NCBI GenBank assembly: GCA_048938105.1
Contig: JBHLMN010000003.1
Span: 320,001 to 384,000, forward strand
Direction: 5' to 3'
Length of the DNA: 64,000 bases
Source: Promethearchaeota archaeon
GTDB lineage: Archaea > Asgardarchaeota > Heimdallarchaeia > Hodarchaeales > Hodarchaeaceae
Shown here: piece after piece, positions 295-56,373 of the stretch
Layout: every line of letters starts with the position of its first letter
Position numbering within the stretch: position 1 is the stretch's first letter
Notes under the pieces: model-generated
Told to the model about the DNA's origin: nothing
Seen by the model: only the letters and a program-made list of their open reading frames with translations
The model's database searches: none
Made by a program: the position numbers and the translations under genes

Positions 295-2769
295 ATGAAA
301 CAAATAGATTTATCTGGGATTTGGAATTGCACTCAAAAAAGCACTAAAAAAACTATTCCAATCAAGATTCCTGGAGATAACCATAAGGCTCTATTAGATG
401 CGGGAATAATTCTCCATCCATATGAAGGACTGAATGAGCTTGATATACAATGGGTGGGTAAAGAAGATTGGATTTTCTCGCGATCATTCACCGTTGCCAA
501 ATATATTTTATCGGAAAAGGAAATCTTCTTACATATTGACAGTTTAGACACAATTGCAGATATAAAAATCAATAATAATCCTATTAAAAGTTCTGATAAC
601 ATGTTTATTAGAACTAGATGTGATATAACTGATTCTCTTGTCGAAGGGAAAAATGAAATAACGATATTCTTTACCTCTGCAGAGAAAATCGCTGAGGAGC
701 GTTCTAAAAATCTCCCTTACGAAATTCCTCATACATTGAGTCCTGTTTACTCAGAACATAGAAATCTAGTAAGAAAGGTTCAATGTCATTCTGGATGGGA
801 TTGGGGCCCTTGTATGATGGTTACTGGAATTTATGGCGATGTTTACATTGGTACTCACAGTAAAGGACGTATAGATTATGTGTACACCAGAATTACGAAA
901 TTGAAAGAGAAGGAAAATATATGGCAAATATCTGTAACTGTTGAATTGCACTCTCCTATAGAATCTGAATCAGAAATTATTAGAATAGATATGAATGAGC
1001 TAGATATATCTGAATCTACTATAGTGACATTAAAAAAGGGAAAGAATGAAATAACCCTGAATTTACTCATTTCAAATCCAAAGCTATGGTGGCCTTTTGG
1101 ATATGGAGAACAGCATCTTTATAATTTAACTGTAACCACTCCTGATGATACATTATCAAAACGAATAGGTTTCCGTCAACTTGAAGTAATCACAGAAGAT
1201 GATAATATTGGCAGAAGTATGGTTTTTCGTGTAAATCAAAGAGAGATTTTTTGCAAGGGAGCGAATTGGATACCAATAGATGCTATGCCTTCTCTCCAAA
1301 GCCCTGATCGATATGAAAAATTATTATCTGATGTCATTGAAGCAAATATGAACATGATTCGAGTATGGGGTGGAGGTCAATATGAATCAGAAATCTTTTA
1401 CAACCTTTGTGATGAAAAAGGGATACTTATTTGGCAAGATTTCATGTTTTCCTGTAGTCTTTACCCTTCTGACCCTGAATTCCTCACTAATGTTGAAAAA
1501 GAAGTCACTCACCAAGTTAAACGCCTAAAAGATCATCCATGTATTGCAATCTGGTGTGGTGACAATGAAAACGTTGGTGCTCTCAACTGGTTTGCTGTTT
1601 CCATGCTAAATAGAGAACGATATCTTAATGATTATATTAAACTCAATAAAACAATTGAGAAAGTTGTTAAAAAGTTAGATCCAGACCGAAAATGGTGGCC
1701 AAGCTCACCTTGTGCGGGGGAAGATGATTACTCTGACAATTGGCATGATGATTCCAAAGGTGACATGCATTATTGGAGTGTATGGCATGAAGGAAAACCT
1801 TTTGAAGCCTATTATGAGGTGACACCTCGATTTTGTTCGGAATTTGGATTTCAATCCTTTCCTTCTCTTGAGACGGTAAAATCTTATGCTCCAGAAGATC
1901 AGTGGGATGTCACTTCTGGAGTAATGGAACATCATCAAAGGAGTATCAATGGGAATGAAATCATAACAAAAACTCTCGCACAGTATTTCAAAAAGCCCAC
2001 TAATTTTGAAGAATGGCTATATTTAAGTCAAGTCGGCCAAGCTTATGCAATAAAAACAGCTGTGGAGTACTGGAGAAGTAAACGCCCTATCTGTATGGGT
2101 ATTCTCTATTGGCAACTCAATGATCTATGGCCTGTCGCATCTTGGTCTTCAATTGAATATAATGGAAAATGGAAGCTTCTTCACTATGCTGCAAAGAAAT
2201 TCTACCAACCAATCCATGTAGCAGCATATAGTAAGGATGGTTATTCAACATTAGAAATTTGGGGTATGAATGATACTAATAAATCTTATGAGATTTTACT
2301 AGATATGAATTTCATTGATTTTTCAGGCAATATTTCACAAAAAGAACAACTTTCAATAAAACTAAATTCTGAAACTGCTAAGCAGATCAGGATACTTAAC
2401 CTAAAGAATGATCTCCCATTCAGTAGGGAAAAAGGATTTTTATATCTTAAAGCTAAAACTCCTTCTGTATTTCTTGAAAACACATTCTTTTTTATCCAAC
2501 CGAAATACTGTGAGCTTAAGCCTGCAAACATCACTTTTGAGATTGACACTAATCAATCATCCATTTTTTTGATTAAATTAGCAACTGACAAACCAGCATT
2601 CTTTGTCACCTTAGATTTTTTTGAAATAAAAGGAAAATTTAGTGACAATTGCTTCACAATAATTCCAGGTCAAAGAAAAACAGTAATCTTTTATCCTGAA
2701 CCTGAATGTATAATAAAGCCAAAAGAAGTACAAAAAGCCCTAAAGATTTTTCATTTGAAGCCAGACTAA
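295..2769 (+). CDS. GH2 beta-mannosidase
   Basis: 824 aa; RKxQCHSGWDWGP, KGANWIP, NMIRVWGGG, WQDFMF, WCGDNEN (acid/base), RFCSEFGFQS (nucleophile) and WQLNDLWP motifs typical of GH2 beta-mannosidases; no signal peptide. Confidence 0.9.
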   Translation: MKQIDLSGIWNCTQKSTKKTIPIKIPGDNHKALLDAGIILHPYEGLNELDIQWVGKEDWIFSRSFTVAKYILSEKEIFLHIDSLDTIADIKINNNPIKSSDNMFIRTRCDITDSLVEGKNEITIFFTSAEKIAEERSKNLPYEIPHTLSPVYSEHRNLVRKVQCHSGWDWGPCMMVTGIYGDVYIGTHSKGRIDYVYTRITKLKEKENIWQISVTVELHSPIESESEIIRIDMNELDISESTIVTLKKGKNEITLNLLISNPKLWWPFGYGEQHLYNLTVTTPDDTLSKRIGFRQLEVITEDDNIGRSMVFRVNQREIFCKGANWIPIDAMPSLQSPDRYEKLLSDVIEANMNMIRVWGGGQYESEIFYNLCDEKGILIWQDFMFSCSLYPSDPEFLTNVEKEVTHQVKRLKDHPCIAIWCGDNENVGALNWFAVSMLNRERYLNDYIKLNKTIEKVVKKLDPDRKWWPSSPCAGEDDYSDNWHDDSKGDMHYWSVWHEGKPFEAYYEVTPRFCSEFGFQSFPSLETVKSYAPEDQWDVTSGVMEHHQRSINGNEIITKTLAQYFKKPTNFEEWLYLSQVGQAYAIKTAVEYWRSKRPICMGILYWQLNDLWPVASWSSIEYNGKWKLLHYAAKKFYQPIHVAAYSKDGYSTLEIWGMNDTNKSYEILLDMNFIDFSGNISQKEQLSIKLNSETAKQIRILNLKNDLPFSREKGFLYLKAKTPSVFLENTFFFIQPKYCELKPANITFEIDTNQSSIFLIKLATDKPAFFVTLDFFEIKGKFSDNCFTIIPGQRKTVIFYPEPECIIKPKEVQKALKIFHLKPD

Positions 2770-2817
2770 ATTCAGCTCTCAGCATACCAATAGATCTATT
2801 CTTTTTTCCAATTTTAG

Positions 2818-3801
2818 TTATATAGTATTGACTCGAATAAATTCGATAAGCTCATCTATGTGAGAATAAGCAACACAAATTACTGTGTCAGCTGCCCCAT
2901 AATAGATAGCAACACGCCCAGTAGAAGCATCAGTTAATGCTGCACAAGGAAAAACAACATTTGGTACATCTCCCACGCATTCGTAAAGCCTTTGGGGGGA
3001 AAGAAAATATGGCCCAGTCCGATATTTTACCTTCCATGGTTGGTTAATATCAAGTATAGCGGCTCCTGCACTATAAACAAAACCGTTACATGATGTTAAT
3101 ACACCATGATAAATCATAAGCCACCCCTCAGAAGTTTCAATGGGAGTAGGACCAGCCCCAATTTTTGTCGATTGCCAACCAAGATTTGGTGACATTACAT
3201 GACGATGATGACCCCAATGAATCATATCAGGGCTTTCACTGTAGAAAATATCACCCCAAGGGGTATGTCCTCTATCACTGGGTCGACTCAACATTGTATA
3301 TCTATCATTAATTTTCCTAGGAAATAAGACACCATTTCGATTATAAGGTAAAAAAGCGTTTTCTAATTGATAAAATTCTTCAAAATCATAAGTAAATGCC
3401 ACACCAATGGTCGGACCATAATACCAATTGCACCAAGTCACATAAAATCGATCCTCTATCCAGCAAACTCGTGGATCATATCCGTAAACAAAAGTAGCTA
3501 TATCAGAATTTTCGGAAATAAAGGAGATTGGTTCATTATCGATTTCCCAGCCGATACCATCCTTACTCCTTCCTTTGTGAAGCCGCATATTCCGATACTT
3601 ATCATCACACCTAAAAATCCCTGCAAACTCACCTTGAAATGGAACAACAGCACTATTGAAAATACTGTTAGAAGAAGGTATTAAATCCCGTGGAATTATA
3701 GGATTTTGTTTTGAACGCCAAACCACATCTTTACAATCTTCTGGCTTATCTTCCCAAGGGATATTTGGTAGAGGTTCACCTATAATCTTAATATTTTCCA
3801 T
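2818..3801 (-). CDS. GH130 beta-mannoside phosphorylase (beta-1,4-mannooligosaccharide / mannosyl-GlcNAc phosphorylase-like)
   Basis: 327 aa; [46 protein letters not shown] and YYGAADT motifs of GH130. Confidence 0.9.
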
Positions 3802-3881
3802 CTTTACTTACACCAATCATTCAGTCATGAATTTTCTATTATTGAATAAATTATTGAGCTATATAGAAAGTTTCACCAAAC

Positions 3882-4871
3882 TTAGCTAGTTTTTATTCGA
3901 GGATCAATAAATCCATATGTAATATCGATTAAAAAATTACCAAGGATAGCAATAATTAAAATAACAATGGTTACACCCATAATAAGGGGATAGTCACGTG
4001 CATAAATAGCCTTAAGATAGAGGTTACCGATTCCTGGCCATAAAAAGACATATTCTACTATCAATGTCTCCCCAATGAGTTCGTTTAGTCTTAAGTTCAA
4101 CAGTGTAAATTGAGGTAAAATTGCATTTCTTTGTGCGTATTTTCTCAGTGTCTTTTTCCTGAATCCCAAATGTCCGGCATAACTTATGTAAGATGAATCT
4201 ATTTCATGAAGAGTCATGGCTCGCATACCTACTGCCCAACTTCCTGCATGCACAAGTAGCAATGTTATGAATGGCGCCAGGTAATGGCGTAAAAGATCAA
4301 TAAAGTAATCAAGACGAAAACCAGGAATCATTTGAGGACTTGATGCCCCAGGATGACTAAGTAAGATATTGTTTCCAACAACAAAATAAACAAAGATGAT
4401 TAATCCCAACCAATAAAACGGTGCGGATCGAAGAATAAGCAATATAAAATATGTCATTTCGTTGGCTCTGCCTTTCAAGTATGCTGATTTGCTCCCAATC
4501 CAATTACCCAAGAAAAAACTAATGAATAATATTGGGATCGCAAGAACAAGAGAATAGAAGAGAGGATGAATTATTACTTCTGAAACTCTCATAGGATAAT
4601 AGGAAATGGATGGTCCTAAATCCAGTTGAATTAAGTTCAACCAAAAAGATAGGTATTGTTCTTCTATTGGCTTATATAGCTCAAAAAAGTAAATCATGTA
4701 AAAATCATTTGTGTCAACCATCAGCCTCGGGATAATAAAAGCGATAGTAAGGGCAATGAATAGTGCTATCAAGTAAAATACAGCTTTCTTTATAAAGAAT
4801 TTTACATAAGCATGACTGAAACTTTTTGTTCCCTTCAAATCTCCGTTAACCATCCTTCTTATAACTATCAT
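3882..4871 (-). CDS. Orphan DppB/OppB-type ABC transporter permease (paralog of 24152..25288)
   Basis: 329 aa, multi-TM; DLGPSI, EAA-loop region, RNAILPQ, WPGIG, DYPLIMG, DITYGFIDPRI. Confidence 0.85.
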   Translation of the reverse strand: MIVIRRMVNGDLKGTKSFSHAYVKFFIKKAVFYLIALFIALTIAFIIPRLMVDTNDFYMIYFFELYKPIEEQYLSFWLNLIQLDLGPSISYYPMRVSEVIIHPLFYSLVLAIPILFISFFLGNWIGSKSAYLKGRANEMTYFILLILRSAPFYWLGLIIFVYFVVGNNILLSHPGASSPQMIPGFRLDYFIDLLRHYLAPFITLLLVHAGSWAVGMRAMTLHEIDSSYISYAGHLGFRKKTLRKYAQRNAILPQFTLLNLRLNELIGETLIVEYVFLWPGIGNLYLKAIYARDYPLIMGVTIVILIIAILGNFLIDITYGFIDPRIKTS

Positions 4872-5674: not shown

Positions 5675-6319
5675 TCATGATTTCCAGTTAATAACATTGA
5701 TGATCATCTTTTGGAAGACTTTTTTAGCAATTTGTTCTTCCCCATGTCCTAACGCCGTATAAAAAACAGTTCCTAACCCGTATGATTTCGTCCATGCAAT
5801 AGGACGGAGAAATCCCTGATAATCACATACCACAAGAATTTCGAGAGGAGGATACATTTCCATCAAATATAATTCATCAATGAGTGTGAAATCTGATACC
5901 CCCTGCATAATGGGGTGATCAGGGTTAACTACTTGAAAACGATACTCTTCTCCTAAAGGAGGATGAGTCAAGAATCTAGCCCCAAGCATTCGTAAATAAG
6001 CTTTAGAATTTTGAAAGGAACAAGAAGCACCATGGACGCCAATGAATGTTTTAGGTCCTCCAGTTTCTCCCCAGGGTGAGCCAATTATGGCATTTAAAAG
6101 ACCATTTTCTTGTTCTGATGTTAATTCTCTTCCTGTCGTGTAACAGACAATAACTTGAAACTTCTTGATATTTTGAGGTAAGAAAAAGTCTAGATCTTCC
6201 GTTAATGTCACCTTAAAGCCAACTTCTTCTAAAAAATCTTTGAAAATTGGTCCCATTACCGAGAAATCGTGAAATTCTGTTTCTAAGCCTCCAATAACTA
6301 AAATATTAACATCATTCAC
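5675..6319 (-). CDS. ThuA-like domain protein (class I glutamine amidotransferase-like fold)
   Basis: 214 aa; FIGVHGA, FLTHPP, HPIMQG, DELY, WTKSYGxGTVFYTALGH. Confidence 0.8.
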   Translation of the reverse strand: MNDVNILVIGGLETEFHDFSVMGPIFKDFLEEVGFKVTLTEDLDFFLPQNIKKFQVIVCYTTGRELTSEQENGLLNAIIGSPWGETGGPKTFIGVHGASCSFQNSKAYLRMLGARFLTHPPLGEEYRFQVVNPDHPIMQGVSDFTLIDELYLMEMYPPLEILVVCDYQGFLRPIAWTKSYGLGTVFYTALGHGEEQIAKKVFQKMIINVINWKS

Positions 6320-7395: not shown

Positions 7396-10300
7396 ATGAA
7401 GAATTGTGGGTTAAAAATGGATATTATAATAAGGTTGATGAATAATCAAACCTTTTTACTTTCAAAATTTGATTTTTTAGAATTTAATGAAGAAACGAAA
7501 AAAGAAATAGATTTAAGAAAACTAGCAATAAAAATCTTCAATATAGTCAACATCTTTGGTCCCAAAGCCATTGTCCTTGAATGCGAGGACAAAGCTTTAC
7601 AATCTTATCTCATAGATTCTTTGAGTTCCTGTCTTCAAGAGGAATTTACATTTGAAAAGTTAGGTGGAGGAGTTCAAATTTTAACCTCCCTTCCTTTTTA
7701 CAGTGAGGAGCCAATTTCTTTAACATCAAAAATAAAAAAGCTTGGCCAATTTGAAAATCAAATAGGGTTAGGTGTTGAAGTTGGGGGAAAAACAATTAAT
7801 GGAGTATGCATCGATGGTAATGGAAACATCATAAGACGATCAAAAAGAAACATAAGAAAAAGTAAAGGCTATAGATCTGTAATCAATCTCATTATTGATT
7901 TAATAAAAGAATTACTCGAGTCCTTAAATCCTGATAAAATTAAAAGTGTTGGAATCGGTATCCCTGGCGGAATTGGCCCCATTCTTGTCCGAAGAATGAT
8001 AATAATGGGAGATTTCCATGATATCAACCTCAGGGCTGAAATAGAAAATGCTATTGGTCATCCTACCTTTATTGAAAATGATGCTAACGTCATTGCTCTA
8101 GGAGAGAAAGAAATTTCAAGGATTGAAGGAGATTTCTTCACCCTTACACTCGGTGAGAGCGTTGGAGGAGGTATTATCATAAATGATCGTATAATTCATG
8201 GCGAAAACTACTTTGCCGGTGAATTAGGACATATAATTATTGATTACTCCCCAGATGCATCTGTTTGTGGTTGCGGGAATAAGGGCTGTTTTGAAGCGAA
8301 GATGGCAAAAATTACTGCTTTTACAAAAGAGAACTTGGATGAGATGGCAAAAGACGTAGCTAAAGCTATTAAGGTCATCGTTAATCTAACAAATATTAAC
8401 CAAGTGCTTATTGGGAGTAGTATTACGAAATTTGGATATAATTTTTATGAAGCCATACGAGATAATTTAAAAACTCGTTTTATTCCAAAAATAACCCCTG
8501 TTCAGGTTTATGAATCCTCATTAGAGAAATTTCCTGAAACTGAGCGCAAATTTGTAGGTGCAATCGGTGCAGCTATTATGGGGATGCAAAAAGTAGGAGA
8601 AATATCAGAAAAAGTTGTTGTAGTTGTCAAAGATAGCGATAATGAAATGGGAATAGCAGCAGCTCAAATAATAGCAGAACAAATACGAAGAAAACCGAAT
8701 ATGGTGTTGGGATTAGCAACTGGAAGTACTCCTATCAGTATGTACAAAGAATTAGTACGGATGCATAAAGAAGAAAACTTAGACTTCTCACAGGTTTCAA
8801 CTTTCAATCTTGATGAATATTATCCGATAAAAAAGGAAGATAGTCAAAGCTATTACACTTTCATGAATTATTGGCTATTTGACCATGTAAATATCAATCC
8901 TCAGAATATTCATGTCCCTAATGGGGATATTCCTAAAGACGATCTTGAATCATACTGTGAGCATTTTGAACAGTTGATATCTAAGGCTGGAGGCATCGAC
9001 ATTCAGATTTTAGGCATTGGGGAAAGTTTTTTTACTGATAAGAGAGAAATTCAAGGAGGCCATATCGGATTTAACGAAGCTGGTTCAGATTTTTCTTCAC
9101 GTACGAGAAAAATAGTATTAGCAGAGAAAACCCGAGTAGATAATGCGCGATTTTTTCAAAGAATCGAGGAAGTCCCTCGCTATGCGATTACTATGGGGAT
9201 AGGGACAATCTTGGAAGCTAAGAGAATAATTATGCTAGCTTCAGGAGAGCATAAAGCTCTCATAATTAAAGAAGCTGTTGAAGGAAGAATTACCCCCTCT
9301 ATACCAGCCTCTGCATTACAAGCCCACGCTAATACTACTTTCCTAATCGAAAAAGGCGCAGCATCCAATTTAAGTCGAATGTCCATCCCATGGTTATTCT
9401 TTGATATGGATTGGACGAATGAAAGCACTAAAACAAAAACTGATGAAATTAAGATTGATGAGGCGTTGATTTGGCTTTCATTAACCACCAAAAGACCATT
9501 GACTCAACTCGATTTACAAGATTTTCATAACAATTTTCTTTCAGATCTCCTTCAGCTTTACAATTACAATGTTCCTAGTTTAACCACCGAGGTAATAGAC
9601 AGGATTACCAATAAAATTGTCTATAAAGAAAAGCTTCCGAGACGTAAAAAGATACTAATCATCTCTTGTAGGCCTGGTGACGATGGTGTTATTGCTGACA
9701 TTGTTAGAGCTTTAATTAGTAATCATAATAAAGTAAAAATTGTAAATATGGTTAGTGGTAACATTAATGTGAAGAATTCTGATGTAATCGATTATTGTGA
9801 ACAGAACATTTTTGAGAAATCAATTAAGGAACGTATCTTAAATAATACCATTGATATGATTGATTTATTGCAGCTAAAGACTCTTGTTAGGAAATCTGAG
9901 TCAATAGATATGCATGCATATATGGGGATCTCATCTGAAAATCAAATTTTCTTGAATTTGCCATTCTATGAAACTAGAACAATCGAAAAAATCATTGAAA
10001 TCTCTGACGATGATATTATACCATTAATTTCCGTTTTAGACAAAGAACAACCAGATATAATTCTTATTCTAGGAGGAATAACTGATCCCCATGGACTTAA
10101 AGCAAGAATTGTAGAAATATTCGAATTAGCATTAAATAGATCTAAGATCCAAAAAGTAGATTTATGGTATTATAAGACGACTATGGAGGAGTTTTCGGTT
10201 GCTAAGGGAGATTTAATTATTCCTTTTTCTGAAAAAGAAATGGATCTGAAAGCAATAGCAATTCAACGATTAAATAGTCAACAGGTGGTTGATTTCCTTA

Positions 10301-10458
10301 TTATTCCTGGATTTGACCCACGACCGCTTTGGGAACGTATTAAAGAGCGGAATCAAAGAGTTGGACACATCCTTAGAACAATTGGTTTAGTTCCTGATGA
10401 ATATATTTACGCTTCAATTTGTCAGGTTTCTCAATATATCAAAGAGAGCTCTAAGTAA
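7396..10458 (+). CDS. nagB: Fusion of a ROK-family domain, glucosamine-6-phosphate deaminase (NagB) and a PIG-L/LmbE-like deacetylase-fold domain
   Basis: 1020 aa. ROK: ENDAN, GELGH, CGCGNKGCFE. NagB: LGLATGSTP, FNLDEYY, DIQILGIG, GHIGFNE, ITMGIGTIL. C-terminal domain: IISCRPGDD, FLNLPFYET, DPHG. Confidence 0.85.
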   Translation: MKNCGLKMDIIIRLMNNQTFLLSKFDFLEFNEETKKEIDLRKLAIKIFNIVNIFGPKAIVLECEDKALQSYLIDSLSSCLQEEFTFEKLGGGVQILTSLPFYSEEPISLTSKIKKLGQFENQIGLGVEVGGKTINGVCIDGNGNIIRRSKRNIRKSKGYRSVINLIIDLIKELLESLNPDKIKSVGIGIPGGIGPILVRRMIIMGDFHDINLRAEIENAIGHPTFIENDANVIALGEKEISRIEGDFFTLTLGESVGGGIIINDRIIHGENYFAGELGHIIIDYSPDASVCGCGNKGCFEAKMAKITAFTKENLDEMAKDVAKAIKVIVNLTNINQVLIGSSITKFGYNFYEAIRDNLKTRFIPKITPVQVYESSLEKFPETERKFVGAIGAAIMGMQKVGEISEKVVVVVKDSDNEMGIAAAQIIAEQIRRKPNMVLGLATGSTPISMYKELVRMHKEENLDFSQVSTFNLDEYYPIKKEDSQSYYTFMNYWLFDHVNINPQNIHVPNGDIPKDDLESYCEHFEQLISKAGGIDIQILGIGESFFTDKREIQGGHIGFNEAGSDFSSRTRKIVLAEKTRVDNARFFQRIEEVPRYAITMGIGTILEAKRIIMLASGEHKALIIKEAVEGRITPSIPASALQAHANTTFLIEKGAASNLSRMSIPWLFFDMDWTNESTKTKTDEIKIDEALIWLSLTTKRPLTQLDLQDFHNNFLSDLLQLYNYNVPSLTTEVIDRITNKIVYKEKLPRRKKILIISCRPGDDGVIADIVRALISNHNKVKIVNMVSGNINVKNSDVIDYCEQNIFEKSIKERILNNTIDMIDLLQLKTLVRKSESIDMHAYMGISSENQIFLNLPFYETRTIEKIIEISDDDIIPLISVLDKEQPDIILILGGITDPHGLKARIVEIFELALNRSKIQKVDLWYYKTTMEEFSVAKGDLIIPFSEKEMDLKAIAIQRLNSQQVVDFLIIPGFDPRPLWERIKERNQRVGHILRTIGLVPDEYIYASICQVSQYIKESSK

Positions 10459-10466
10459 TAATAAAA

Positions 10467-13073
10467 TTGTTTTTACGGAGTAAGACAACATTGAGTAAAA
10501 AAATTATCTTGAATAAAGAATGGAAAATGCAATCTTCTGGAAATTTATCAAAGTTTGGTGAAGTGATTTCCACTACTGATTTCATACCAGAAGATTGGTA
10601 TACTGTTGATGTTCCGACAACTGTCATAAATGGTCTTATTTTAAATGATGAATTCGATTTTAAAGATCCTTATTACGGATTAAATCTGAAATCAATACCA
10701 GGACACAAAGCACATATTACTCAACAGAATTATGAAAGCCGATATATGCCTGAAGACAGCCCTTTTAGAAAATCATGGTGGTTTAGAAAAGAGTTTTTAC
10801 TAGAAAGGAAGAATGGTAATGAGGAAACTTGGATAGCTTTTGATGGTATTAATTATTCAGCAAATATTTGGATAAATGGAAAACGGATTGCTGGTTCAGA
10901 TCATATAATTGGAACATATCGACGTTATGATTTTCATGTTACTCCTTTTGTGGATCTCGGAAAAAAGAACATAATTGCACTAGAGGTTTTTTCGCCTAAT
11001 CCTGATGATCTTGGAATAAGTTTTGTAGACTGGAACCCTTTACCTCCTGATGATGACATGGGTATTTGGCATCCAGTATATGTTTATATGACAGGCCCAG
11101 TTGCATTAAAGTATCCATTTGTGAAAAGCAAATTGAACATTGAAACTTTAAAAGAAGCTGAATTACTAATCAGTGTTGAACTGCATAATACACAAAAAAA
11201 CCAAGTAGAAGCTATCGTGGAAGGAAAAATTGGGGAAATAACTTTTCAAAAGGAATTATTCCTATCTTCGTATGAAAAAAAGGAATTCATTTTCTCTTGT
11301 GTGGATTTTCCCCAACTTCTAATAAAAGATCCACGTATTTGGTGGCCTTATCAACTTGGTTCGCCAGAGTTATATAAGCTGGATCTAATAGTCAAAGTGA
11401 ACGATGAAATCTCTGATGAAAAAGTAATAAATTTTGGAATAAGAGATGTAAAGTCTTCTATCAATGAATATGGTTCATGTGTATTCACTATCAATGGACA
11501 GAATATTCTCATCCGTGGTGGAGGTTGGACATGTGATATGATGCTTCACCAATCGAAAGAACGAGACGAAATTGATATTTCCTTTTTAAAGAATCTCAAT
11601 ATGAACACTTTACGACTTGAAGGTAAATTAGGATCAGATTATTTTTGGGAAAAATGTGATAGAGAAGGAATACTCGTTTTAGCAGGATGGGTCTGTTGTA
11701 GTCATTGGGAAAAGTGGAATAACTGGAAAAAAGGAGATTTAAGGGTTGCAAAAAAGTCTTTAGACTCTCAGATTCGTCGTCTTCGTAATCATCCAAGCTT
11801 GATAGCATGGTTATATGGGAGTGACTTCCCACCACCCGAATTTGTTGAGAAAGTTTATCTTGACGTATTAAAAGAACACAATGAACTTCCAATAATTTCA
11901 AGTGCGACAGCTGCACCTTCAGTAATTCTTGGAGAAACAGGAGTAAAGATGTCAGGGCCTTACACTTATGTACCACCTATCTATTGGTATACTAAAGGAA
12001 AACCAGGTTTTGCTGAGAGCTTTAATACTGAAACAGGGCCTGATGTGTGTATTCCTCCTTATGAGAGTTTGATGAAGATGTTACCTGAAAATCAGTTGTA
12101 TATAGGCAGCGAAGGTTGGAATTATCATGCAGGACTTGGTTCTTTCAAAAATACAGAAATAATAGAAGAAACAATTTCTAAAAGGTATGGTAAACCAAAG
12201 GATATTGAAGATTTTACACGAACCTCCCAAGTTCTTGGTTACGAATGTTGGCGAGCAATGTTTGAGGCATACGGGCAAAATTTTCCTAAAGCAACAGGTG
12301 TTATAGGTTGGATGTATAATAGTGCGTGGCCAAGCTTAATTTGGCAATTATTTGACTATTATTTTAATCCTAATGGTGCATTCTATGGTTCAAAGAAAGC
12401 CTGTGAACTCATTCATATCCAATATTCATATAGTGATGCATCAGTCTGGGTTATTAACGGAACACTTAATAAAAAGGAAAATCTAACCGTAACAGTGAAT
12501 CTATTTAATATTGATCTAGAAAAAAAGTATTCCTTTTCAAAAAAGGTGAATATTAATGGGAATGATAGAAAAAAAACTCTAACTGTTCCTAAAATAGAGG
12601 GATTATCTTCAGTATATTTTATTCAACTCCTCCTTGAGGATGGTTCAATTGTACTTAGTGAAAATTTCTACTGGCTTTCATTAAAAAACGATTTGTTTGA
12701 GGACAAAGATGAATGGTATTACAGTCCAGTTAAAGAACATGCAGATATGAGTAGTTTAAGAGATCTCCTCGATGCAGAAATAAAATGTGATTTTAGTATT
12801 ATCGAAAAAAAGAATGTGTACGAAATTTCTTTACGTATCACAAATATTTCCGATGTAATTGCATTTTTCCTAAGATATTATTTAATTGAGGAAGAAACAA
12901 ATCAATTTCTCACCCCTGTATATTGGGAGGATAACTGTATAAGTATTCTTCCTTCAGAGACAAGAGAAATTACAGGAGTTTTTCCAAAGAATACCATAAC
13001 CAGTAAAGTAAATGTTCAAATTGATGGTTGGAACTGCAGGCAAACATTGCGGTCGGAAAAAGGTATTAACTAA
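10467..13073 (+). CDS. GH2 exo-beta-D-glucosaminidase-like glycosidase (CsxA type)
   Basis: 868 aa; FDGINYSA, DWNPLPPD, IRGGGW, NTLRLEGK, GWVCCSHWE, WLYGSD (Asp acid/base rather than NE), FNTETGP, WPSLIWQLFDYY. Confidence 0.8.
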   Translation: MFLRSKTTLSKKIILNKEWKMQSSGNLSKFGEVISTTDFIPEDWYTVDVPTTVINGLILNDEFDFKDPYYGLNLKSIPGHKAHITQQNYESRYMPEDSPFRKSWWFRKEFLLERKNGNEETWIAFDGINYSANIWINGKRIAGSDHIIGTYRRYDFHVTPFVDLGKKNIIALEVFSPNPDDLGISFVDWNPLPPDDDMGIWHPVYVYMTGPVALKYPFVKSKLNIETLKEAELLISVELHNTQKNQVEAIVEGKIGEITFQKELFLSSYEKKEFIFSCVDFPQLLIKDPRIWWPYQLGSPELYKLDLIVKVNDEISDEKVINFGIRDVKSSINEYGSCVFTINGQNILIRGGGWTCDMMLHQSKERDEIDISFLKNLNMNTLRLEGKLGSDYFWEKCDREGILVLAGWVCCSHWEKWNNWKKGDLRVAKKSLDSQIRRLRNHPSLIAWLYGSDFPPPEFVEKVYLDVLKEHNELPIISSATAAPSVILGETGVKMSGPYTYVPPIYWYTKGKPGFAESFNTETGPDVCIPPYESLMKMLPENQLYIGSEGWNYHAGLGSFKNTEIIEETISKRYGKPKDIEDFTRTSQVLGYECWRAMFEAYGQNFPKATGVIGWMYNSAWPSLIWQLFDYYFNPNGAFYGSKKACELIHIQYSYSDASVWVINGTLNKKENLTVTVNLFNIDLEKKYSFSKKVNINGNDRKKTLTVPKIEGLSSVYFIQLLLEDGSIVLSENFYWLSLKNDLFEDKDEWYYSPVKEHADMSSLRDLLDAEIKCDFSIIEKKNVYEISLRITNISDVIAFFLRYYLIEEETNQFLTPVYWEDNCISILPSETREITGVFPKNTITSKVNVQIDGWNCRQTLRSEKGIN

Positions 13074-23742: not shown

Positions 23743-23751
23743 GAATAAAGC

Positions 23752-23782
23752 CTCTCCCCCCTTTCTTTTTTTCCCTTTTTTT
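23752..23782 (+). terminator. Pyrimidine/oligo-T tract after the SBP gene (archaeal-type terminator)
   Basis: ctctcccccctttcttttttcccttttttt starting about 10 nt after the stop codon. Confidence 0.6.
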
Positions 23783-25288: not shown

Positions 25289-25292
25289 ATAT

Positions 25293-26144: not shown

Positions 26145-26148
26145 CTAA

Positions 26149-27132: not shown

Positions 27133-27148
27133 TCGAATTGGTGTTCTC

Positions 27149-35009: not shown

Positions 35010-35726
35010 ATGATGGGAAAGGTGCTGGAAATAGCAAAAATGATTGATCACTCATTACTTCATCCTACTTTAACTGATGAAGAATTAGAATTAGGTTGCC
35101 AACTAGCAAGAAAATTGAATGTGGCTTCAGTTTGCATTAAACCTTATGCAGTTAAATTGGCAGTAGAGAAGTTAAAAGATTCTGATGTTGCTGTTGGTAC
35201 CGTGATTGGGTTTCCACATGGAAATAGCAAAATAGATGTCAAAATTTTTGAAGCAGAACAAGCTTGTAAAGACGGTGCCATAGAACTAGATGTAGTAGTA
35301 AATATCGGTAAAGTACTGAGTGAAGATTGGGAATACATTGAAAAAGAAATCGGAGCCATTATCACTGTTTCCAAAAAGTACAATACTATTGTTAAAATCA
35401 TTTTTGAGAATGACCTTTTATCTGATGATCACTATAAGATTAAACTTTGTGAGATCTGTAGTAAATTCAATGTGGATTATATTAAAACCTCAACTGGATA
35501 TGGTTTCGTTAAAGGAGAAAATGGAAAGTATTCATATAAAGGAGCTACAGATCATGATCTTAAGTTAATGAGAGATCACTCTTCTAAGGAAGTCAAAATA
35601 AAAGCTGCAGGAGGAGTACGAACACTTAATGATGTTTTAAGAGTTAAAGAAATTGGAGTAACAAGAATTGGTGCAACAGCAACTGAGATCATTATTAAGG
35701 AAGCAAAAATCAAATTTAAAGATTAA
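35010..35726 (+). CDS. deoC: Deoxyribose-phosphate aldolase
   Basis: IDHSLL, VIGFPHG, ELDVV, YIKTSTG, IKAAGGVR, RIGAT. Confidence 0.92.
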   Translation: MMGKVLEIAKMIDHSLLHPTLTDEELELGCQLARKLNVASVCIKPYAVKLAVEKLKDSDVAVGTVIGFPHGNSKIDVKIFEAEQACKDGAIELDVVVNIGKVLSEDWEYIEKEIGAIITVSKKYNTIVKIIFENDLLSDDHYKIKLCEICSKFNVDYIKTSTGYGFVKGENGKYSYKGATDHDLKLMRDHSSKEVKIKAAGGVRTLNDVLRVKEIGVTRIGATATEIIIKEAKIKFKD

Positions 35727-43196: not shown

Positions 43197-44171
43197 ATGA
43201 TGATCTTTAATGATAGAAAAATCAAGAATATTGTAGAACATTTTGATGTTGGACACCTTCACAAGGTAATAACAAGGCTCGATAGTGGATTTCAAAGTGA
43301 TAATTACCATATTCGAACAGATAAAGGAGACTATATTCTTCGGCTTATCTATGATTCAGTCAAAAATATAGAATATATCATGGAAATTTATGATTATTTC
43401 GCTGATCATGGTATTAAAACATCAAAACCAGTAAAAACTAAGGAAGGGACATTCAGTCTTTTATATGAAAATAATGTCGTAGTTGTCCAATCTTTTATAG
43501 CTGGCTCTTATTATGAATCGTTAGATAAAATAGATTCAGTACTTCCATTCTATGGTAGAGAATTAGGTAAGTTCCATCAAGTATCCCTTAAAATGGTAGA
43601 AGAAAAAGGTGAAAAGAGGCTTTCAGCTAAACAATGGGACTCAATTTTATACGTTAAAGCCAGTAGAGACTACTTACCAAACAATGACTATATAAAACAA
43701 CAATATGAATTATGGGAAAGAGACATTGGTTTTTTTCCTGAAGATCAGCTTACCAAGGCGGTCATTCACGGCGATGTAGGGCCTAAAGATTTCTTCTTTA
43801 AGGATGGGAATTTTATGGGAATAATTGACTTTAATGCTGCTCATTTAGATTTCCTCCTCTTTGATATAGCTCCTATGATGATGTATTCTGATTTATACAA
43901 ACCTGAACGAAAAAAACACTATAATACTTTTATTACTGCTTATCTAGAGGAGGCACCCATAACAATAGAGGAATTAAAATGGTTACACCTCGTACTCAGA
44001 ACTAGATGGTTATTACAAATACTTTATCATCAATCTAGATACGAGGAGGGAATAACGCAAGGATTGGAAACTGGAAAAGTAGAAGAAAATTTAATTGGGG
44101 TGCGAGATGGGGAAAATTTTCTGAAAATAACAAATAAAACTTCCAAAGATTCCTATGCTATTATTGAGTAG
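43197..44171 (+). CDS. APH / type II homoserine kinase-like phosphotransferase
   Basis: 324 aa; SGFQSDNY, YILRL, LGKFH, IHGD, GIIDF, FDIA. Confidence 0.75.
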   Translation: MMIFNDRKIKNIVEHFDVGHLHKVITRLDSGFQSDNYHIRTDKGDYILRLIYDSVKNIEYIMEIYDYFADHGIKTSKPVKTKEGTFSLLYENNVVVVQSFIAGSYYESLDKIDSVLPFYGRELGKFHQVSLKMVEEKGEKRLSAKQWDSILYVKASRDYLPNNDYIKQQYELWERDIGFFPEDQLTKAVIHGDVGPKDFFFKDGNFMGIIDFNAAHLDFLLFDIAPMMMYSDLYKPERKKHYNTFITAYLEEAPITIEELKWLHLVLRTRWLLQILYHQSRYEEGITQGLETGKVEENLIGVRDGENFLKITNKTSKDSYAIIE

Positions 44172-45498
44172 AAAGCTGATTCATGATTTCTGCATGAGCT
44201 GATATAATGTCTAAGGTTGAATTATCCTTGTTATAAACCGAATACCAACCAGGGGTCTCATGAGGTGGATCGCCAATCCATTTATCACCTGGTCTAGATT
44301 GTCCCGCCCATGCCCAAAAATTACTACCGACAAGACGACCTCCAGAGGCTGCAGAATTATACACTTCATCATAGACTGCTAAATAAAATGTATCACGATA
44401 TATTGTACTTGAATCTGGGTTATAAATGTCCTGATAAGAACTCCAATCGCGAGCAAGTCCAAATTCCTCCACTACTAGAGGTTTGTTCAATGAATTAGCA
44501 ATCGCTAGATTATTTTGTAAATAACTAAGGGATTTGGATTCAGCACTTTCATAAGTCCAAGGAGAATCTGGAGAATACCATCCCCAGTTTTGTGGCCAAA
44601 CATGGACAGTTAAATAATTAATGAACGAAATATCGTGGACTCCACTATAATTTAAACCATCCCATTCATGATCCCCCTCACATCCAGTAGTGACCATGTG
44701 GTTTGGATCCAATGATTTTATGTATTCTGCAGTATCAGAGCTCCATTTTATAGGAAAATTACGTGGTTCATTGGCAAGTTCCCAGGAGAAGATTGTAGGA
44801 TCCTCATAATACTTTAATCCAGTATAAGGATTTGTATGGTTGATAATTGTTTGAATATGATTCTTATACCATGTTTGACATTCCTCATAATTGTAAAATC
44901 GCGATGAATACGTAATGAAAGTATTCCAATCATTTTCAGGAGGGTATGGAATGGAAGAATTTTCATACCAAGAAACATATTGGGCCATTCCTCCTGACCA
45001 TTGCCAATAATTGTTGAGAACCATTACAGCTTTCATTCTCCTTAATTTGATCTGTTTTAAAAGATAATCCAAACCATCAAGAACAGATGCATCATATTCA
45101 CCAGGGGAAATAAGTAAGGCTGGAGTAATTCGATAAGGTTCTGAATTTGGCCCTTCTGAAGTAGCCATAATTCGCAGATTTGTCACTCCCAGCTGCTTTA
45201 ACGAATCTAACTCGAGATTGAGACGAGTTCGGTTTCCATTAGGCCCATCTATCGCTAAAATCATTCCTTGCCAAAAATTAGCACCAGCAAAATAATATTT
45301 ACTTCTATTAACTACAAATTGATTATTATAGACCGATACAAAAAGTGAGTTTGGGATATCATTCTCATTAGAATCTTGTTGAGGGTTTATTAATTCAAAA
45401 AGGAGTCCAAGACTTATTATCGTAATACAAATAGCTACAATAATTATAAATGATATAAAATAGATCATACGATGATTTATTTTTGCAGAATTCATCAA
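44161..45498 (-). CDS. GH5 beta-mannanase/mannosidase (GH5_7-like) with an N-terminal TM anchor
   Basis: 445 aa; GANFW, NLRI, NNYWQWSGGMAQY, WELANEPR, HVWPQNW, VEEFG, FWAW, GDPPHETPGWYSVY. Confidence 0.88.
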   Translation of the reverse strand: MMNSAKINHRMIYFISFIIIVAICITIISLGLLFELINPQQDSNENDIPNSLFVSVYNNQFVVNRSKYYFAGANFWQGMILAIDGPNGNRTRLNLELDSLKQLGVTNLRIMATSEGPNSEPYRITPALLISPGEYDASVLDGLDYLLKQIKLRRMKAVMVLNNYWQWSGGMAQYVSWYENSSIPYPPENDWNTFITYSSRFYNYEECQTWYKNHIQTIINHTNPYTGLKYYEDPTIFSWELANEPRNFPIKWSSDTAEYIKSLDPNHMVTTGCEGDHEWDGLNYSGVHDISFINYLTVHVWPQNWGWYSPDSPWTYESAESKSLSYLQNNLAIANSLNKPLVVEEFGLARDWSSYQDIYNPDSSTIYRDTFYLAVYDEVYNSAASGGRLVGSNFWAWAGQSRPGDKWIGDPPHETPGWYSVYNKDNSTLDIISAHAEIMNQLSTQ

Positions 45499-53170: not shown

Positions 53171-53253
53171 ATTTGTTATTGGATATAGAAATGATATGAA
53201 TTATTAAAGTTACATCGAAATACACATTGTAAAACAAACAGATTATGAAAAAA

Positions 53254-53436: not shown

Positions 53437-53619
53437 TTTTTATCCCTATTTTTAATATTATTCAATTTTTGTTCAATTATTTTTATTATATTATTCAGGA
53501 ATTATTGAATATAATTTGTTTATAAACTTTATGATTGTTGAAAATTAGTCAAAATTTATTCAATTATTTTTGAAAAAATATTCACAAATCTTATATAATA
53601 ATTAGTGATTTTGCATTAA

Positions 53620-55098
53620 TTGAATTTCATCATGAAATCTACTAATAATGATGATTTAGCTCAAGATTTCCCTCTTGGTTCACTAGAAAGTATCATCGAT
53701 CTTTTAAAAGCTACTGCACATGATACACGTTTACAAATTTTAGTCTATTTATCCAATTCTGAAAAATCCCTTCCTTATTTACACGAGCATATTAAAGCTA
53801 AGTTTGCTAGCAAAGGAAAAGTAAGTAAAACTGCACTTGCTCATCATCTAAATCAACTTATAGACACAGGATTAGTTGAAAAAACGGCCCGAGGAATGTA
53901 TAGCCTTACTGAATACGGTTTAGTTTACATTAAACAGATGAGAACAGTTTTAGAAACATATAGCGAGAGAAATCAAATTATTTCCGAACCTGAAAAGCAG
54001 AAGGAATTCACATATGTATCAGATTATCTTAAAACAAGTTCTGAAACTTCAAAAAATATGGTTAGTGGGAATCCTCTGTATCAGAGTGGATGGAATTCTT
54101 ATATCTCTTCTGTTTCCGGAGTACTAGAATCTCTTGGTGTTAATGATGACTATATTCAATTGAGTGGACGTTCAGCATATTGTTTTATATTTAAAGTATC
54201 CATAGGGGCCATATCTTTCTTGGGAGAAGGAATATTATCTGATAAGGCATGGGAGGAGATTTACAAGGGAACTGAAAGTTTTGGGTGGAAAATTAATGAG
54301 TGGAAGTCTGAACGAGTATATCCCCACCTGTGGAACATAACTGGAGAAGATTTTGAGACAGCAAAAGAGATGTTTTATCGTATTCGCTTTATAATTGATG
54401 AGTATGATACTCCAGTAGTTTTATGGGGTCTTCGTGTTCCCAGTTTTGGTATTGTCAAGGGTTACGACGATGATAGTTATATTGTAAGCACTTATTATCG
54501 TAAAGAAGCTCTTAATGACACACCAGTAAGATATGACTCTATTTATGCTCATGGATCTTTTAAATTTCTTTATTTTACTAAAAGTGAGGGTATCAAATCT
54601 GTGGAGGAAGAGGATAAAACATCCATCACACGAGCTATCAATATGGCTAAAGGAGTAAATGTTACACCTGAAAATACTGTACTTGGGTATAAATACATTT
54701 CAGGACCAGAGGCTTACAGTGAGTTTGCAGACATTCTTTTGAATTTTGACACATCATTACCTGAAATTGCTACTGGATTTCATGGTAGATTTTATCAAGA
54801 CGCAAAAGCAGTTGCTATGGAATACCTTGAACGACTGGCGCGTAAATATACTAGTTTGCCTCAAGGAGAGTTATTACTCAATGCTAGTAAACAATACCGT
54901 GTGATAAAAAGCATTTTTGAAGAATTTATGGTTCTTTTCCCTTATTTTGACATTAAATCTAATAAATCTAAAAAAAGAATAACTGAAGAGAAGAGGAAGA
55001 AGGGAGCTGATCTTTTATTAAAAGCAAAGGATTATGAAGAATCTGGCATTAAATATTTAGAACAAGCTGCTAAACAATGGAGATCTTCTTCAAGATAA
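53620..55098 (+). CDS. ArsR-type winged-HTH regulator fused to a large uncharacterised C-terminal domain (paralog of 37267..38631)
   Basis: 492 aa; KATAHDTRLQIL..KTALAHHLNQL..ARGMY; shared PxYQxxWxSY..SVSGV and PVVLWGL..PxxGIV.GY motifs. Confidence 0.75.
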   Translation: MNFIMKSTNNDDLAQDFPLGSLESIIDLLKATAHDTRLQILVYLSNSEKSLPYLHEHIKAKFASKGKVSKTALAHHLNQLIDTGLVEKTARGMYSLTEYGLVYIKQMRTVLETYSERNQIISEPEKQKEFTYVSDYLKTSSETSKNMVSGNPLYQSGWNSYISSVSGVLESLGVNDDYIQLSGRSAYCFIFKVSIGAISFLGEGILSDKAWEEIYKGTESFGWKINEWKSERVYPHLWNITGEDFETAKEMFYRIRFIIDEYDTPVVLWGLRVPSFGIVKGYDDDSYIVSTYYRKEALNDTPVRYDSIYAHGSFKFLYFTKSEGIKSVEEEDKTSITRAINMAKGVNVTPENTVLGYKYISGPEAYSEFADILLNFDTSLPEIATGFHGRFYQDAKAVAMEYLERLARKYTSLPQGELLLNASKQYRVIKSIFEEFMVLFPYFDIKSNKSKKRITEEKRKKGADLLLKAKDYEESGIKYLEQAAKQWRSSSR

Positions 55099-55179
55099 TC
55101 AATTATTCAACTCTTATTTGGCTTACAAGATTTTATATTGGTTATCTTTAAAAAATTTAACAGTTTACCATTAATTCAC

Positions 55180-56373
55180 ATGAAATCTGAATTAATTGAA
55201 TTGAAAATTGCCCTAGAGAACGAATTGGATAATATCTTAGAATATTGGATGAAATATTCTTTAGATAATGAATATGGGGGATTCTACGGCAGGATTGATC
55301 ATCATAACCAAGTTATTCCCAAATCTTCAAAGAGTTGTATACTCAATACTCGTATTCTTTGGACATTTTCTGCTGCTTATAATTTTTTGAAAAAAAAAGA
55401 ATTACTCGAAGTCGCCATTAGAGCCTATAATTATATTCTAAATCATTTTTTTGATCACGAATATGGAGGCCTTTATTGGGAAGTTGACTATCTGGGTAAT
55501 CCACTAGATATGCGTAAACAGATTTATGCACAAGCTTTCGGAATTTATGGGTTTTCAGAATATTATAAGGCCTGTGGAGATATAGATAGTCTTCGTCATG
55601 CACAAGAGCTTTTTTGGTTGATAGAAAAATATAGTCTTGACCCAAAAAATAACGGTTACATTGAAGCGTTAGATAAAAAATGGCAACCGTTGCTAGATAT
55701 GCGACTAAGCAAAAAAGATATTAACGAACCAAAATCAATGAATACCCATTTACATATTCTAGAAGCTTACACAAATTTATATTATGTCTGGAAGGAAAAA
55801 TCACTTAATAAGCAGATTGAAAACTTATTATGGATTTTTCTCAATAAAATAATCGACCAGAAATCTCATCATTTTCAGTTATTTTTTGATTTAAGTTGGA
55901 CAGTAAAATCCTCAATAATTTCATTTGGTCATGATATTGAAGGATCATGGTTACTAACTGAAGCTACTGAAGCATTAGGAAATGAGAAATTATTGAAAGA
56001 GATAAATGACGTCGTCATAAAGCTGGTTGATAGAACTGTAAAGGAAGGAACAGATAAAAGTAGTTCTCTCTTCTATGAAAATGATAATAAAACTGGAGAA
56101 ATGGACTTTGATAAGCACTGGTGGTGTCAAGCTGAAGCAATGATCGGATTAGTGAACGCCTGGCAGATAACAGGAAATCAACAATATTTGAAGAATGCTA
56201 CTGATATCTGGGATTATATTACACAATTCATTATTAATACTGAACATGGAGAATGGAACGCCGTGATTGATAAATTCGACCATATTATCACTACAGGGGA
56301 TAGAGTTGGATTCTGGAAAGGCCCCTATCATAATACAAGGGCTTGTATAGAGGTTATTAATCGTGTAGGTTAG
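55180..56373 (+). CDS. AGE-family epimerase, cellobiose/mannobiose 2-epimerase-like
   Basis: GGFYG, LNTRILWTFS, KQIYAQAF, KSMNTHLHILEAY, SFGHDIEGSWL, WWCQAEA, WKGPYH; ATG at 55180 (ORF track starts at 55138). Confidence 0.88.
   Translation: MKSELIELKIALENELDNILEYWMKYSLDNEYGGFYGRIDHHNQVIPKSSKSCILNTRILWTFSAAYNFLKKKELLEVAIRAYNYILNHFFDHEYGGLYWEVDYLGNPLDMRKQIYAQAFGIYGFSEYYKACGDIDSLRHAQELFWLIEKYSLDPKNNGYIEALDKKWQPLLDMRLSKKDINEPKSMNTHLHILEAYTNLYYVWKEKSLNKQIENLLWIFLNKIIDQKSHHFQLFFDLSWTVKSSIISFGHDIEGSWLLTEATEALGNEKLLKEINDVVIKLVDRTVKEGTDKSSSLFYENDNKTGEMDFDKHWWCQAEAMIGLVNAWQITGNQQYLKNATDIWDYITQFIINTEHGEWNAVIDKFDHIITTGDRVGFWKGPYHNTRACIEVINRVG

Follow-up and report, generated by a model that had tools for sequence, protein, structure and literature searches.

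A predicted beta-glucan capture, import and phosphorolysis system within a variable carbohydrate island of a Hodarchaeales archaeon

Results

Gene content of the locus

We analysed a 64-kb stretch of DNA (positions 320,001 to 384,000 of contig JBHLMN010000003.1, assembly GCA_048938105.1; henceforth the 'window', in whose own numbering coordinates are given unless otherwise indicated) which carries a group of genes for the use of beta-linked carbohydrates. A preliminary description had read this group as a single saccharolytic unit, spanning 295–56373, in what looked like an Asgard-type archaeon. The RNA polymerase subunit RpoB of the source genome (G000 in our numbering; 5.85 Mb) shares 90–98% identity with sequences filed under the names Hodarchaeota, Hodarchaeum mangrovi and Heimdallarchaeota, which places the host more precisely, in the Hodarchaeales. 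Open reading frames (ORFs) of at least 100 amino acids in the window were translated, those not nested in larger genes were scanned against Pfam, and families were further checked by sequence searches of the Protein Data Bank (PDB) and with NCBIfam profiles; comparisons were made with the relatives G011 (CP070695.1), G016, G012 and G004. The window contains eleven glycosidase or phosphorylase genes (two each of GH2, GH5 and GH94, and one each of GH3, GH16, GH17, GH116 and GH130), one epimerase gene and one complete Opp/Dpp-type ATP-binding cassette (ABC) importer, and Pfam and PDB searches recovered every family that had been named before. Carbohydrate genes are packed densely through 295–37158. 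In a tblastn search of the whole genome, GH94, GH116, GH2, GH16, GH17, the GH5 mannosidase and the epimerase were confined to the window, and three of the four genome copies of GH130 lie on the window's contig, within 65 kb. This clustering is far beyond chance. The central part of the locus reads as follows (coordinates, strand, product):

13928–16357, minus: GH116 beta-glucosidase (Pfam 3e-142), with an N-terminal membrane anchor at residues 5–23 and the catalytic domain predicted outside
16383–18827, minus: GH94a, phosphorylase of the cellobiose phosphorylase type, with supersandwich and catalytic domains (Pfam); cytoplasmic
19060–21237, plus: GH3 beta-glucosidase with GH3 N, C and Fn3-like domains (Pfam); cytoplasmic
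21586–23742, plus: family-5 (Opp-type) oligosaccharide-binding protein (SBP; Pfam SBP_bac_5), with a signal peptide
24152–25288 and 25278–26144, plus: two ABC permeases, with BPD_transp_1 in each
26149–27132 and 27149–27952, plus: two ABC ATPases, with Pfam ABC_tran and oligo_HPY C-terminal regions
27999–29099, plus: LVIVD-repeat beta-propeller surface protein (Pfam LVIVD 8e-58), with a signal peptide and a C-terminal transmembrane segment; last gene of the ABC operon
29114–29887, minus: unk257, an exported protein of 257 amino acids ending in PGL, a transmembrane segment and a basic tail
30044–32410, minus: GH94b phosphorylase, with the architecture of GH94a; cytoplasmic
32604–33980, minus: GH17-like beta-1,3-glucan enzyme, with a signal peptide
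34059–34928, minus: GH16 beta-1,3(4)-glucanase of 289 amino acids (Pfam 5e-25), with an N-terminal membrane anchor
35010–35726, plus: DeoC/LacD-family aldolase (Pfam), which lies beside GH5 in G016 too (74% identical)
35944–37158, plus: GH5 endoglucanase of the Thermotoga Cel5A type (Pfam 4e-54), with a signal peptide

GH94a matches the cellobiose phosphorylase of Clostridium thermocellum (3QDE) over its full length (residues 1–799; 1137 bits) and, judged by this likeness, is of cellobiose-phosphorylase type. GH94b is intermediate, scoring 746 bits with cellobiose phosphorylase and 599 bits with chitobiose phosphorylase, and both proteins score only 67–89 bits against cellodextrin phosphorylases. 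GH116 gives 830 bits with the Thermoanaerobacterium beta-glucosidase TxGH116 (5BVU) and the GH5 endoglucanase 380 bits with 3AMC. The Pfam match of the GH17-like protein is weak (34.6 bits), and in the PDB this protein aligns with the GH17 beta-1,3-glucanosyltransferase 4WTP (E value 1e-21).

Localisation and surface anchoring

Localisation was called from hydropathy, on the longest possible ORFs. N-terminal hydrophobic segments are present in GH116, the GH17-like protein, GH16, both GH5 enzymes, the SBP, the LVIVD protein and unk257, whereas no such segment appears in either GH2 enzyme, GH3, either GH94 enzyme, GH130 or the epimerase, even when the longest ORF is taken. The orthologues in G011 and G016 are divided identically, the GH116 anchor being kept in both, and the separation of exported from cytoplasmic enzymes claimed in the preliminary description thus holds in the source genome and in these relatives. 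At their C-termini, the SBP, the GH17-like protein, the GH5 endoglucanase and unk257 share one build, in which a linker rich in Ser/Thr(/Lys) is followed by a motif resembling PGF, then by a hydrophobic helix and finally by a stretch of basic residues; the SBP has GPGFE, a transmembrane segment and RRRR after a Thr/Lys linker, and the motif is PGY in GH17, TGF in GH5, PGL in unk257 and PGF in the GH17 of G011. From their sequences these tails look like archaeal PGF-CTERM sorting signals. In GH116, GH16 and the GH5 mannosidase the only anchor is the N-terminal one. For unk257 we found neither a Pfam or NCBIfam match nor a counterpart in the relatives' loci.

The importer and its binding protein

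With the SBP, two permeases and two oligo_HPY ATPases, the importer at 21586–27952 is complete and has the make-up of the Opp/Dpp family. The five best PDB matches of the SBP are all Thermotoga binders of cellobiose/beta-glucan or of mannosides, the top matches being the cellobiose/beta-glucan binder TM0031 (2O7I and 4JSD, ~154 bits) and the mannoside binders TM1223/TM1226 (1VR5/4PFU). Kinship to the TM0031 type suggests that the SBP would bind beta-linked oligosaccharides, a prediction to which its permuted topology adds uncertainty. In the PDB alignments the matched segments of the SBP are out of order, and relative to its orthologues the protein is a natural circular permutant: residues 48–236 align to residues 470–659 of the G011 orthologue (62% identity) and residues 218–652 to residues 15–453 (52%), and the permuted protein keeps the signal peptide and the PGF tail at its ends. 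The canonical order is found in G011, G016, G012 and G004, and also in nine other Asgard genomes, with the exception of G330 and G338, in which only the N-terminal part was matched. The permutation is given here as read from the assembly and may be an assembly artefact.

Compared with G011, G016 and G012, the ABC genes have diverged far more (SBP 52–55%, permeases 56–63% identity) than the enzymes that flank them (GH94a 81–91%, GH3 80–88%, GH116 81–87%), a pattern in the sequences that suggests that the importer either had its alleles replaced or has evolved fast. The LVIVD protein is 42–44% identical to its counterparts at the same position in G011 and G016.

Conservation across relatives

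As the preliminary description would lead one to expect, the core genes are clustered in relatives too. The order GH116-GH94a-GH3-SBP-permease-permease-ATPase-ATPase-LVIVD-GH94b-GH17 is kept in G011 and G016 at 44–87% amino-acid identity, and this conserved core of about 20 kb is therefore arranged in the same way in three species. The periphery is reordered, with GH20, GH16, GH130, the DeoC-GH5 pair and the amino-sugar genes attached differently in G011 and G016. GH20 and GH16 lie at different ends of the core in G000, G011 and G016, which indicates that the periphery was rearranged more than once; the GH16 orthologue in G011 is a domain (62% identity) of a 1296-amino-acid protein at ~4,292,075–4,295,965 of CP070695.1. 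GH94 is present in only five of 20 congeners, and for this reason we regard the locus as an accessory trait.

Across the Asgard archaea, GH94 occurs in 45 of 399 genomes and in 13 of 85 genera. A smaller module, in which GH94a, the five ABC genes and GH94b stand together, is found in nine distant Asgard genomes from four families, and its frequent neighbours are an orthologue of the regulator HTH492 (see below), GH130, GH3, GH116, the GH2 glucosaminidase and the epimerase, which adjoins the ABC/GH130 module in G128 and in Hodarchaeota YT5_056. The ABC ATPases are 55–65% identical across Asgard classes, and one Bathyarchaeia locus combines GH94b with the same ABC genes (ATPases 63% and 58% identical).

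Origins of the two GH94 phosphorylases

Proteins from Anaerolineae share 73% identity with GH94a, and a Chloroflexota donor was among those that the preliminary description raised for testing. In a FastTree phylogeny of 129 sequences, of which 79 are bacterial (drawn from the best 80 matches), 17 of the 19 Asgard sequences form one group (support 93) that is placed next to, and not within, the sampled bacteria, and one Thor-type sequence is nested within Anaerolineae (support 98). A firm Chloroflexota origin was accordingly rejected, the 73% identity being no more than a hint of it, and since the bacterial sample consisted of the best 80 matches only, it is too narrow to identify a donor. In bacteria, GH94a is likewise accompanied by GH3, GH130 and epimerase genes, and the Opp-type importer is missing from those loci.

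The nearest relatives of GH94b are from Bathyarchaeia (63–69% identity) and Asgard archaea (58–66%), with bacteria at 50% or less. Its clade comprises 22 sequences, all archaeal (19 Asgard and three Bathyarchaeia), with SH-like support of 100, and contains no characterised member. We tentatively consider, as a possibility that is more doubtful than probable, that GH94a, the Opp-type ABC genes, GH94b and the HTH gene form an archaea-specific cassette, exchanged horizontally among several Asgard classes and Bathyarchaeia, in which GH94b would have a specificity new to GH94 (for example for a beta-1,3- or mixed-linkage glucobiose or an amino-sugar disaccharide) and HTH492 would represent a new class of sugar-sensing archaeal regulators with a BtrH_N/DUF4872-like sensor.

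Candidate regulators

Two paralogous genes for helix-turn-helix (HTH) proteins lie downstream of the central genes:

37267–38631, plus: HTH454, candidate locus regulator (Pfam HTH_5), with an ArsR-type winged helix and a ~350-amino-acid domain without a family match; follows the GH5 endoglucanase gene
53620–55098, plus: HTH492, paralogous regulator, also with an ArsR-type HTH and the ~350-amino-acid domain, ~30% identical to HTH454 over its full length

The HTH492 family was found in 67 of the 399 Asgard genomes, and in at least 13 genomes its best-scoring orthologues are on the same contig as GH94, within ~10 kb of it. The two ArsR-type paralogues are the likeliest candidates for dedicated regulators of the system. 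An AlphaFold2 model of the HTH regulator, built on a seven-sequence alignment, had a mean pLDDT of 51, which was too poor for a fold search. Weak leads for the ~350-amino-acid domain came from the ESM Atlas (unnamed bacterial clusters at 0.93, and BtrH_N/DUF4872/Peptidase_C39_2 clusters at 0.83–0.85). Upstream of HTH492, at 53451–53606, there are two copies of a 69-nt repeat, each with a TATTCA-N8-TGAATA-like site, and a third such site overlaps the first repeat copy; these repeat sites could be an autoregulatory operator.

Flanking genes and extent of the island

On either side of the central part, the window contains the enzymes of two putative side branches together with accessory genes:

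295–2769, plus: GH2 beta-mannosidase-like enzyme (Pfam Glyco_hydro_2_N2 5e-50 and mannosidase Ig domains), cytoplasmic, without a signal peptide
2818–3801, minus: GH130 enzyme of the beta-1,4-mannooligosaccharide phosphorylase type (Pfam 2e-66), cytoplasmic
3882–4871, minus: orphan ABC permease (BPD_transp_1), a 47–48% identical paralogue of the first importer permease, upstream of GH130 and co-oriented with it
5675–6319, minus: ThuA-like protein, a sugar-related accessory (Pfam ThuA 6e-34), 78% identical in G011
7396–10458, plus: fusion of ROK kinase-like, NagB and C-terminal domains, 1020 amino acids (Pfam ROK, Glucosamine_iso)
10467–13073, plus: GH2 exo-beta-D-glucosaminidase-like enzyme (Pfam Ig_GlcNase 3e-22 and GH2 domains), cytoplasmic
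44161–45498, minus: GH5 beta-mannosidase/mannanase with an N-terminal membrane anchor, amid unrelated genes
55138–56373, plus: cellobiose 2-epimerase-like protein (Pfam GlcNAc_2-epim 2e-40), cytoplasmic

The PDB matches of GH130 (UhgbMP 536 bits, RaMP2 (5AYD) 509, TM1225 445) place it in the group of beta-1,4-mannooligosaccharide and Man-GlcNAc phosphorylases, and it is 85% identical to its G011 counterpart. The permease beside it has the same neighbour in G011 (61% identity); the copy at 3882–4871 is not accompanied by a dedicated binding protein or ATPase. The GH2 beta-mannosidase-like gene has no counterpart in the G011 and G016 loci. The second GH5 enzyme has no Pfam match and is related to the GH5 exo-beta-1,4-mannosidase 4LYP (310 bits) and to 1UUQ (273 bits), and the epimerase scores 378 bits with the NCBIfam model EpiA against 118 bits with that of N-acylglucosamine epimerase (AGE). 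Among the amino-sugar genes, the GH2 glucosaminidase-like protein is 65% identical in G011 and 63% in the Asgard genome G143, where its gene adjoins ABC genes. The fusion protein (83% identical in G011) scores 498 bits with PRK02122 and 279 bits with nagB in NCBIfam, NagB being glucosamine-6-phosphate deaminase; it consists of an N-terminal region, the ROK kinase-like domain, NagB and a C-terminal domain of ~340 amino acids, and its gene ends eight bases before the glucosaminidase-like gene.

The interval from 295 to 56373 is not the single unit that had been proposed. Its coherent part covers about 1–38.6 kb of the window and extends upstream past the window start, where GH20 ends nine bases before the window and two GH130 genes and a GH4 gene lie further out. 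The same upstream region (C14:282001–320000) also encodes a pair of DUF6785/DUF6784 membrane proteins and a pair of Peptidase_M28-FtsX fusions. It further contains five ORFs of 521–748 amino acids without a Pfam domain, and for none of these five did the G011 and G016 loci yield a counterpart. Between 38.7 and 53 kb the window holds genes for a DUF4037 protein, a membrane SDR, a DNA alkylation repair protein, an APH protein, an aldo-keto reductase, a methyltransferase, a histidine kinase and others; none of them was found in the relatives' loci, and they are accessory genes unrelated to the sugar system. The pair of regulator and epimerase at 53.6–56.4 kb most plausibly belongs to the system and has been displaced from it, because HTH492 orthologues adjoin the GH94/ABC module in other Asgard genomes.

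Interpretation and alternatives

Taken with their clustering, the anchor split and their conservation, the gene families lead us to propose, with a probability of about 0.7, that the locus is a system for the capture, import and phosphorolysis of beta-glucans and beta-glucosides, set within a larger and variable carbohydrate island; its substrates, the orientation of its enzymes, co-regulation and regulator function are inferred. The GH5 endoglucanase, GH16, the GH17-like enzyme and GH116, tethered outward, would cut beta-1,4-, beta-1,3- and mixed-linkage glucans into short oligosaccharides, which the surface-tethered TM0031-type family-5 SBP would pass to the Opp/Dpp-type importer. In the cytoplasm, GH3 would trim these oligosaccharides, and GH94a and GH94b would phosphorolyse the disaccharides to glucose-1-phosphate and a free sugar, saving one ATP per bond. 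Phosphoglucomutases encoded elsewhere would route the sugar-1-phosphates into glycolysis; the genome has five phosphoglucomutase/phosphomannomutase (PGM/PMM) genes, all outside the locus. A beta-mannoside side branch would consist of the GH5 mannosidase, GH130, the GH2 beta-mannosidase-like enzyme and the cellobiose 2-epimerase, and an amino-sugar side branch of the GH2 glucosaminidase, the ROK-NagB fusion and the GH20 encoded upstream of the window. Of the layout given in the preliminary description, the anchored glycanases, the single oligosaccharide importer and the cytoplasmic phosphorylases are retained, and the 56-kb single unit is given up.

Several observations weigh against this proposal. 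The peripheral shuffling and the presence of GH94 in a quarter of the congeners mark the island as accessory and modular rather than as a fixed unit, and three substrate classes are served by one complete importer. No exact 5-N(0–12)-5 palindrome is shared by four or more of 14 upstream regions, and the divergent GH94a/GH3 promoter, aligned from four species, has no conserved block beyond the start-codon regions. The TATTCA-N8-TGAATA motif forms a cluster of three upstream of HTH492 only, and its total in the window (16 against 12 expected) is not enriched. GH17 enzymes are often transglycosylases and not hydrolases. The archaeosortase A model ArtA (TIGR04125) finds in the genome only best scores of 31 and 22 bits against a 75-bit cut-off, covering only the C-terminal half; a divergent exosortase-family protein may nevertheless be present.

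Much of this would also fit a looser arrangement, in which independent beta-glucoside, mannoside and amino-sugar operons were gathered by transfer and recombination into an accessory 'sugar island' without shared regulation or coupling beyond the GH94-ABC core. The peripheral gene order, which varies among G000, G011, G016 and G004, the unrelated genes at 38.7–53 kb, the missing common operator, the patchy distribution within the genus and the divergence of the ABC genes far beyond that of the enzymes around them, with the SBP at 52–55% and GH94a at 83–91% identity, are all in keeping with such an origin. However, it does not readily account for the constant order of the 20-kb core in three species, for the reappearance of GH130, GH3, GH116, the epimerase and the regulator beside the ABC/GH94 module in Asgard lineages that are only distantly related, or for the concentration of nearly all carbohydrate-active enzyme (CAZyme) families of the genome at the locus, and we judge it rather unlikely. 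A still smaller chance, and one we rate as decidedly slim, attaches to the idea that the main role of the locus is to recycle or remodel glycans made by the cell itself (N-glycan cores, or envelope or extracellular beta-glucan) and not to exploit external polysaccharide. The GH20, the UhgbMP-type GH130, the GH2 beta-mannosidase and the glucosaminidase/NagB genes would suit breakdown of a Man-beta-GlcNAc core, and the GH17 relative 4WTP, as a glucanosyltransferase, is a remodelling enzyme; against this, the Cel5A-type endoglucanase, the cellobiose phosphorylase and the TM0031-like importer are typical of nutrient acquisition, and absence of the module from most congeners would be unexpected for envelope maintenance.

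A last alternative is bacterial contamination or a chimeric join in this metagenome-assembled genome, and two figures could be taken to point that way, namely the CheckM-type contamination of 7.25% and the identity of GH94a to Anaerolineae proteins. However, CP070695.1, the G011 genome, is a single 4.94-Mb contig that carries both a Hodarchaeales-type RpoB and a collinear copy of the locus at 4.259–4.293 Mb; the locus is also present in G016, G012 and G004, GC content is uniform, and the close relatives of GH94b and the ABC genes are archaeal only. Owing to the RpoB identity and to the linkage on CP070695.1, we regard the Asgard assignment as confirmed and chimerism as very unlikely, the chance of it being close to negligible, which answers the question of a bacterial or chimeric contig raised earlier. 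Contig C9 of the source genome carries an archaeal 16S rRNA gene, whose match (C9:1695–3919) spans 2225 bases against a 1478-position model, so that the gene must contain one or more large insertions. The 16S rRNA profile gave no match in the closed relative G011, and the G011 locus was therefore placed by its linkage to RpoB.

Comparison with known systems

Pfam scans of ORFs of at least 100 amino acids in the window and in the 38 kb upstream revealed no SusC-, SusD- or TonB-type domains. Lacking a SusC/SusD pair, the locus is not a polysaccharide utilisation locus (PUL) in the strict Bacteroidota sense, whereas the term 'PUL-like' applied to it previously is apt only in the looser Gram-positive/Thermotoga sense of CAZymes beside a transporter. 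A Gram-positive-type PUL, which Sheridan et al. 2016 are said to have defined, is reportedly a co-located set of CAZyme, transporter and regulator, and here GH5, GH16, GH17, GH116, GH3 and GH94 flank the ABC importer over 14–38 kb of the window. With Bacteroidota PULs the locus shares the co-location of glycanases at the surface, a binding protein and a transporter with exo-enzymes inside the cell and a candidate regulator; it differs in that the present host has no outer membrane or periplasm, so the likeness is one of functional analogy only, and by the same analogy the locus might serve 'selfish' polysaccharide uptake, in which large oligosaccharides are taken in with little loss outside the cell.

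The TM0024–TM0032 region of Thermotoga maritima encodes a GH16 laminarinase, the GH3 enzyme BglB and an Opp-family cellobiose/laminaribiose ABC importer with TM0031. The Hodarchaeales locus resembles it in having GH16, GH3 and a five-gene Opp/Dpp-type importer, with TM0031 as the best match of its SBP, and its GH5 endoglucanase is closest to T. maritima Cel5A (3AMC); it adds two GH94 enzymes, GH116 and GH17, and has archaeal-style C-terminal tails, a permuted SBP and another regulator family. C. thermocellum and Ruminococcus albus also follow this logic, with an endoglucanase outside the cell, cellodextrin import by an ABC transporter and a cellobiose/cellodextrin phosphorylase that saves ATP, and the mannan route of R. 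albus (cellobiose 2-epimerase with GH130 phosphorylases) has likely parallels here in the RaMP2-like GH130 and the EpiA-like epimerase. Unlike those systems, the Asgard locus has no cellulosome and no phosphorylase of the cellodextrin type, its importer is Opp-type rather than CUT1/CUT2, and its second GH94 belongs to an archaea-only clade.

In Pyrococcus furiosus, Koning et al. 2001 (PMC95372, cited in PMC11284389) reportedly described CbtABCDF, an inducible, high-affinity Opp-family cellobiose importer with an adjoining beta-mannosidase, together with the laminarin genes LamA/CelB. By this description it is similarly an archaeal Opp-family beta-glucoside importer beside glycosidases; it differs in being hydrolytic and in belonging to a hyperthermophile of another phylum, whereas the Asgard locus is predicted to be phosphorolytic. 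The novelty asserted for the locus at the outset must be narrowed in view of Pyrococcus and of Thermotoga, both of which have organised saccharolytic loci with Opp-type importers. It stands for the Asgard archaea, for which our literature search returned CAZyme inventories and no description of such a locus. Asgard archaea, especially the Heimdall group, have been described as poor sugar degraders, with Sifarchaeota called saccharolytic and polysaccharide use by the Heimdall group "less supported" (bioRxiv 10.1101/2020.10.14.339440), and earlier claims of Asgard cellulose use were based on gene inventories (bioRxiv 10.1101/385732). The present analysis adds a core module found across the phylum, an all-archaeal GH94b clade and the association with the regulator.

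A conserved and physically linked module for capture, import and phosphorolysis in Hodarchaeales, the proposed closest relatives of eukaryotes, points to cello- and laminari-oligosaccharides as hypothetical substrates, and attempts to enrich and cultivate these archaea could start from them. It leaves the understanding of how such loci work unchanged, and its value rests mainly on the host lineage and on three tractable, uncharacterised components, namely the archaea-only GH94b clade, the HTH regulator family and the naturally permuted SBP.

Other features of the window

No dispersed repeat family of ~28 bp, as expected of dif-like module sites, was found in the window; the CGTTGG core occurs 17 times against eight expected, a count that has no clear meaning without the arm sequences. 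At the far end of the window (63062–64000) there are tandem repeats of ~370 bp with 87% identity (63212–63511/63581–63880 and 63520–63628/63892–64000), which lie inside an ORF of 888 amino acids that has no Pfam match and runs on to ~65728 on the contig.

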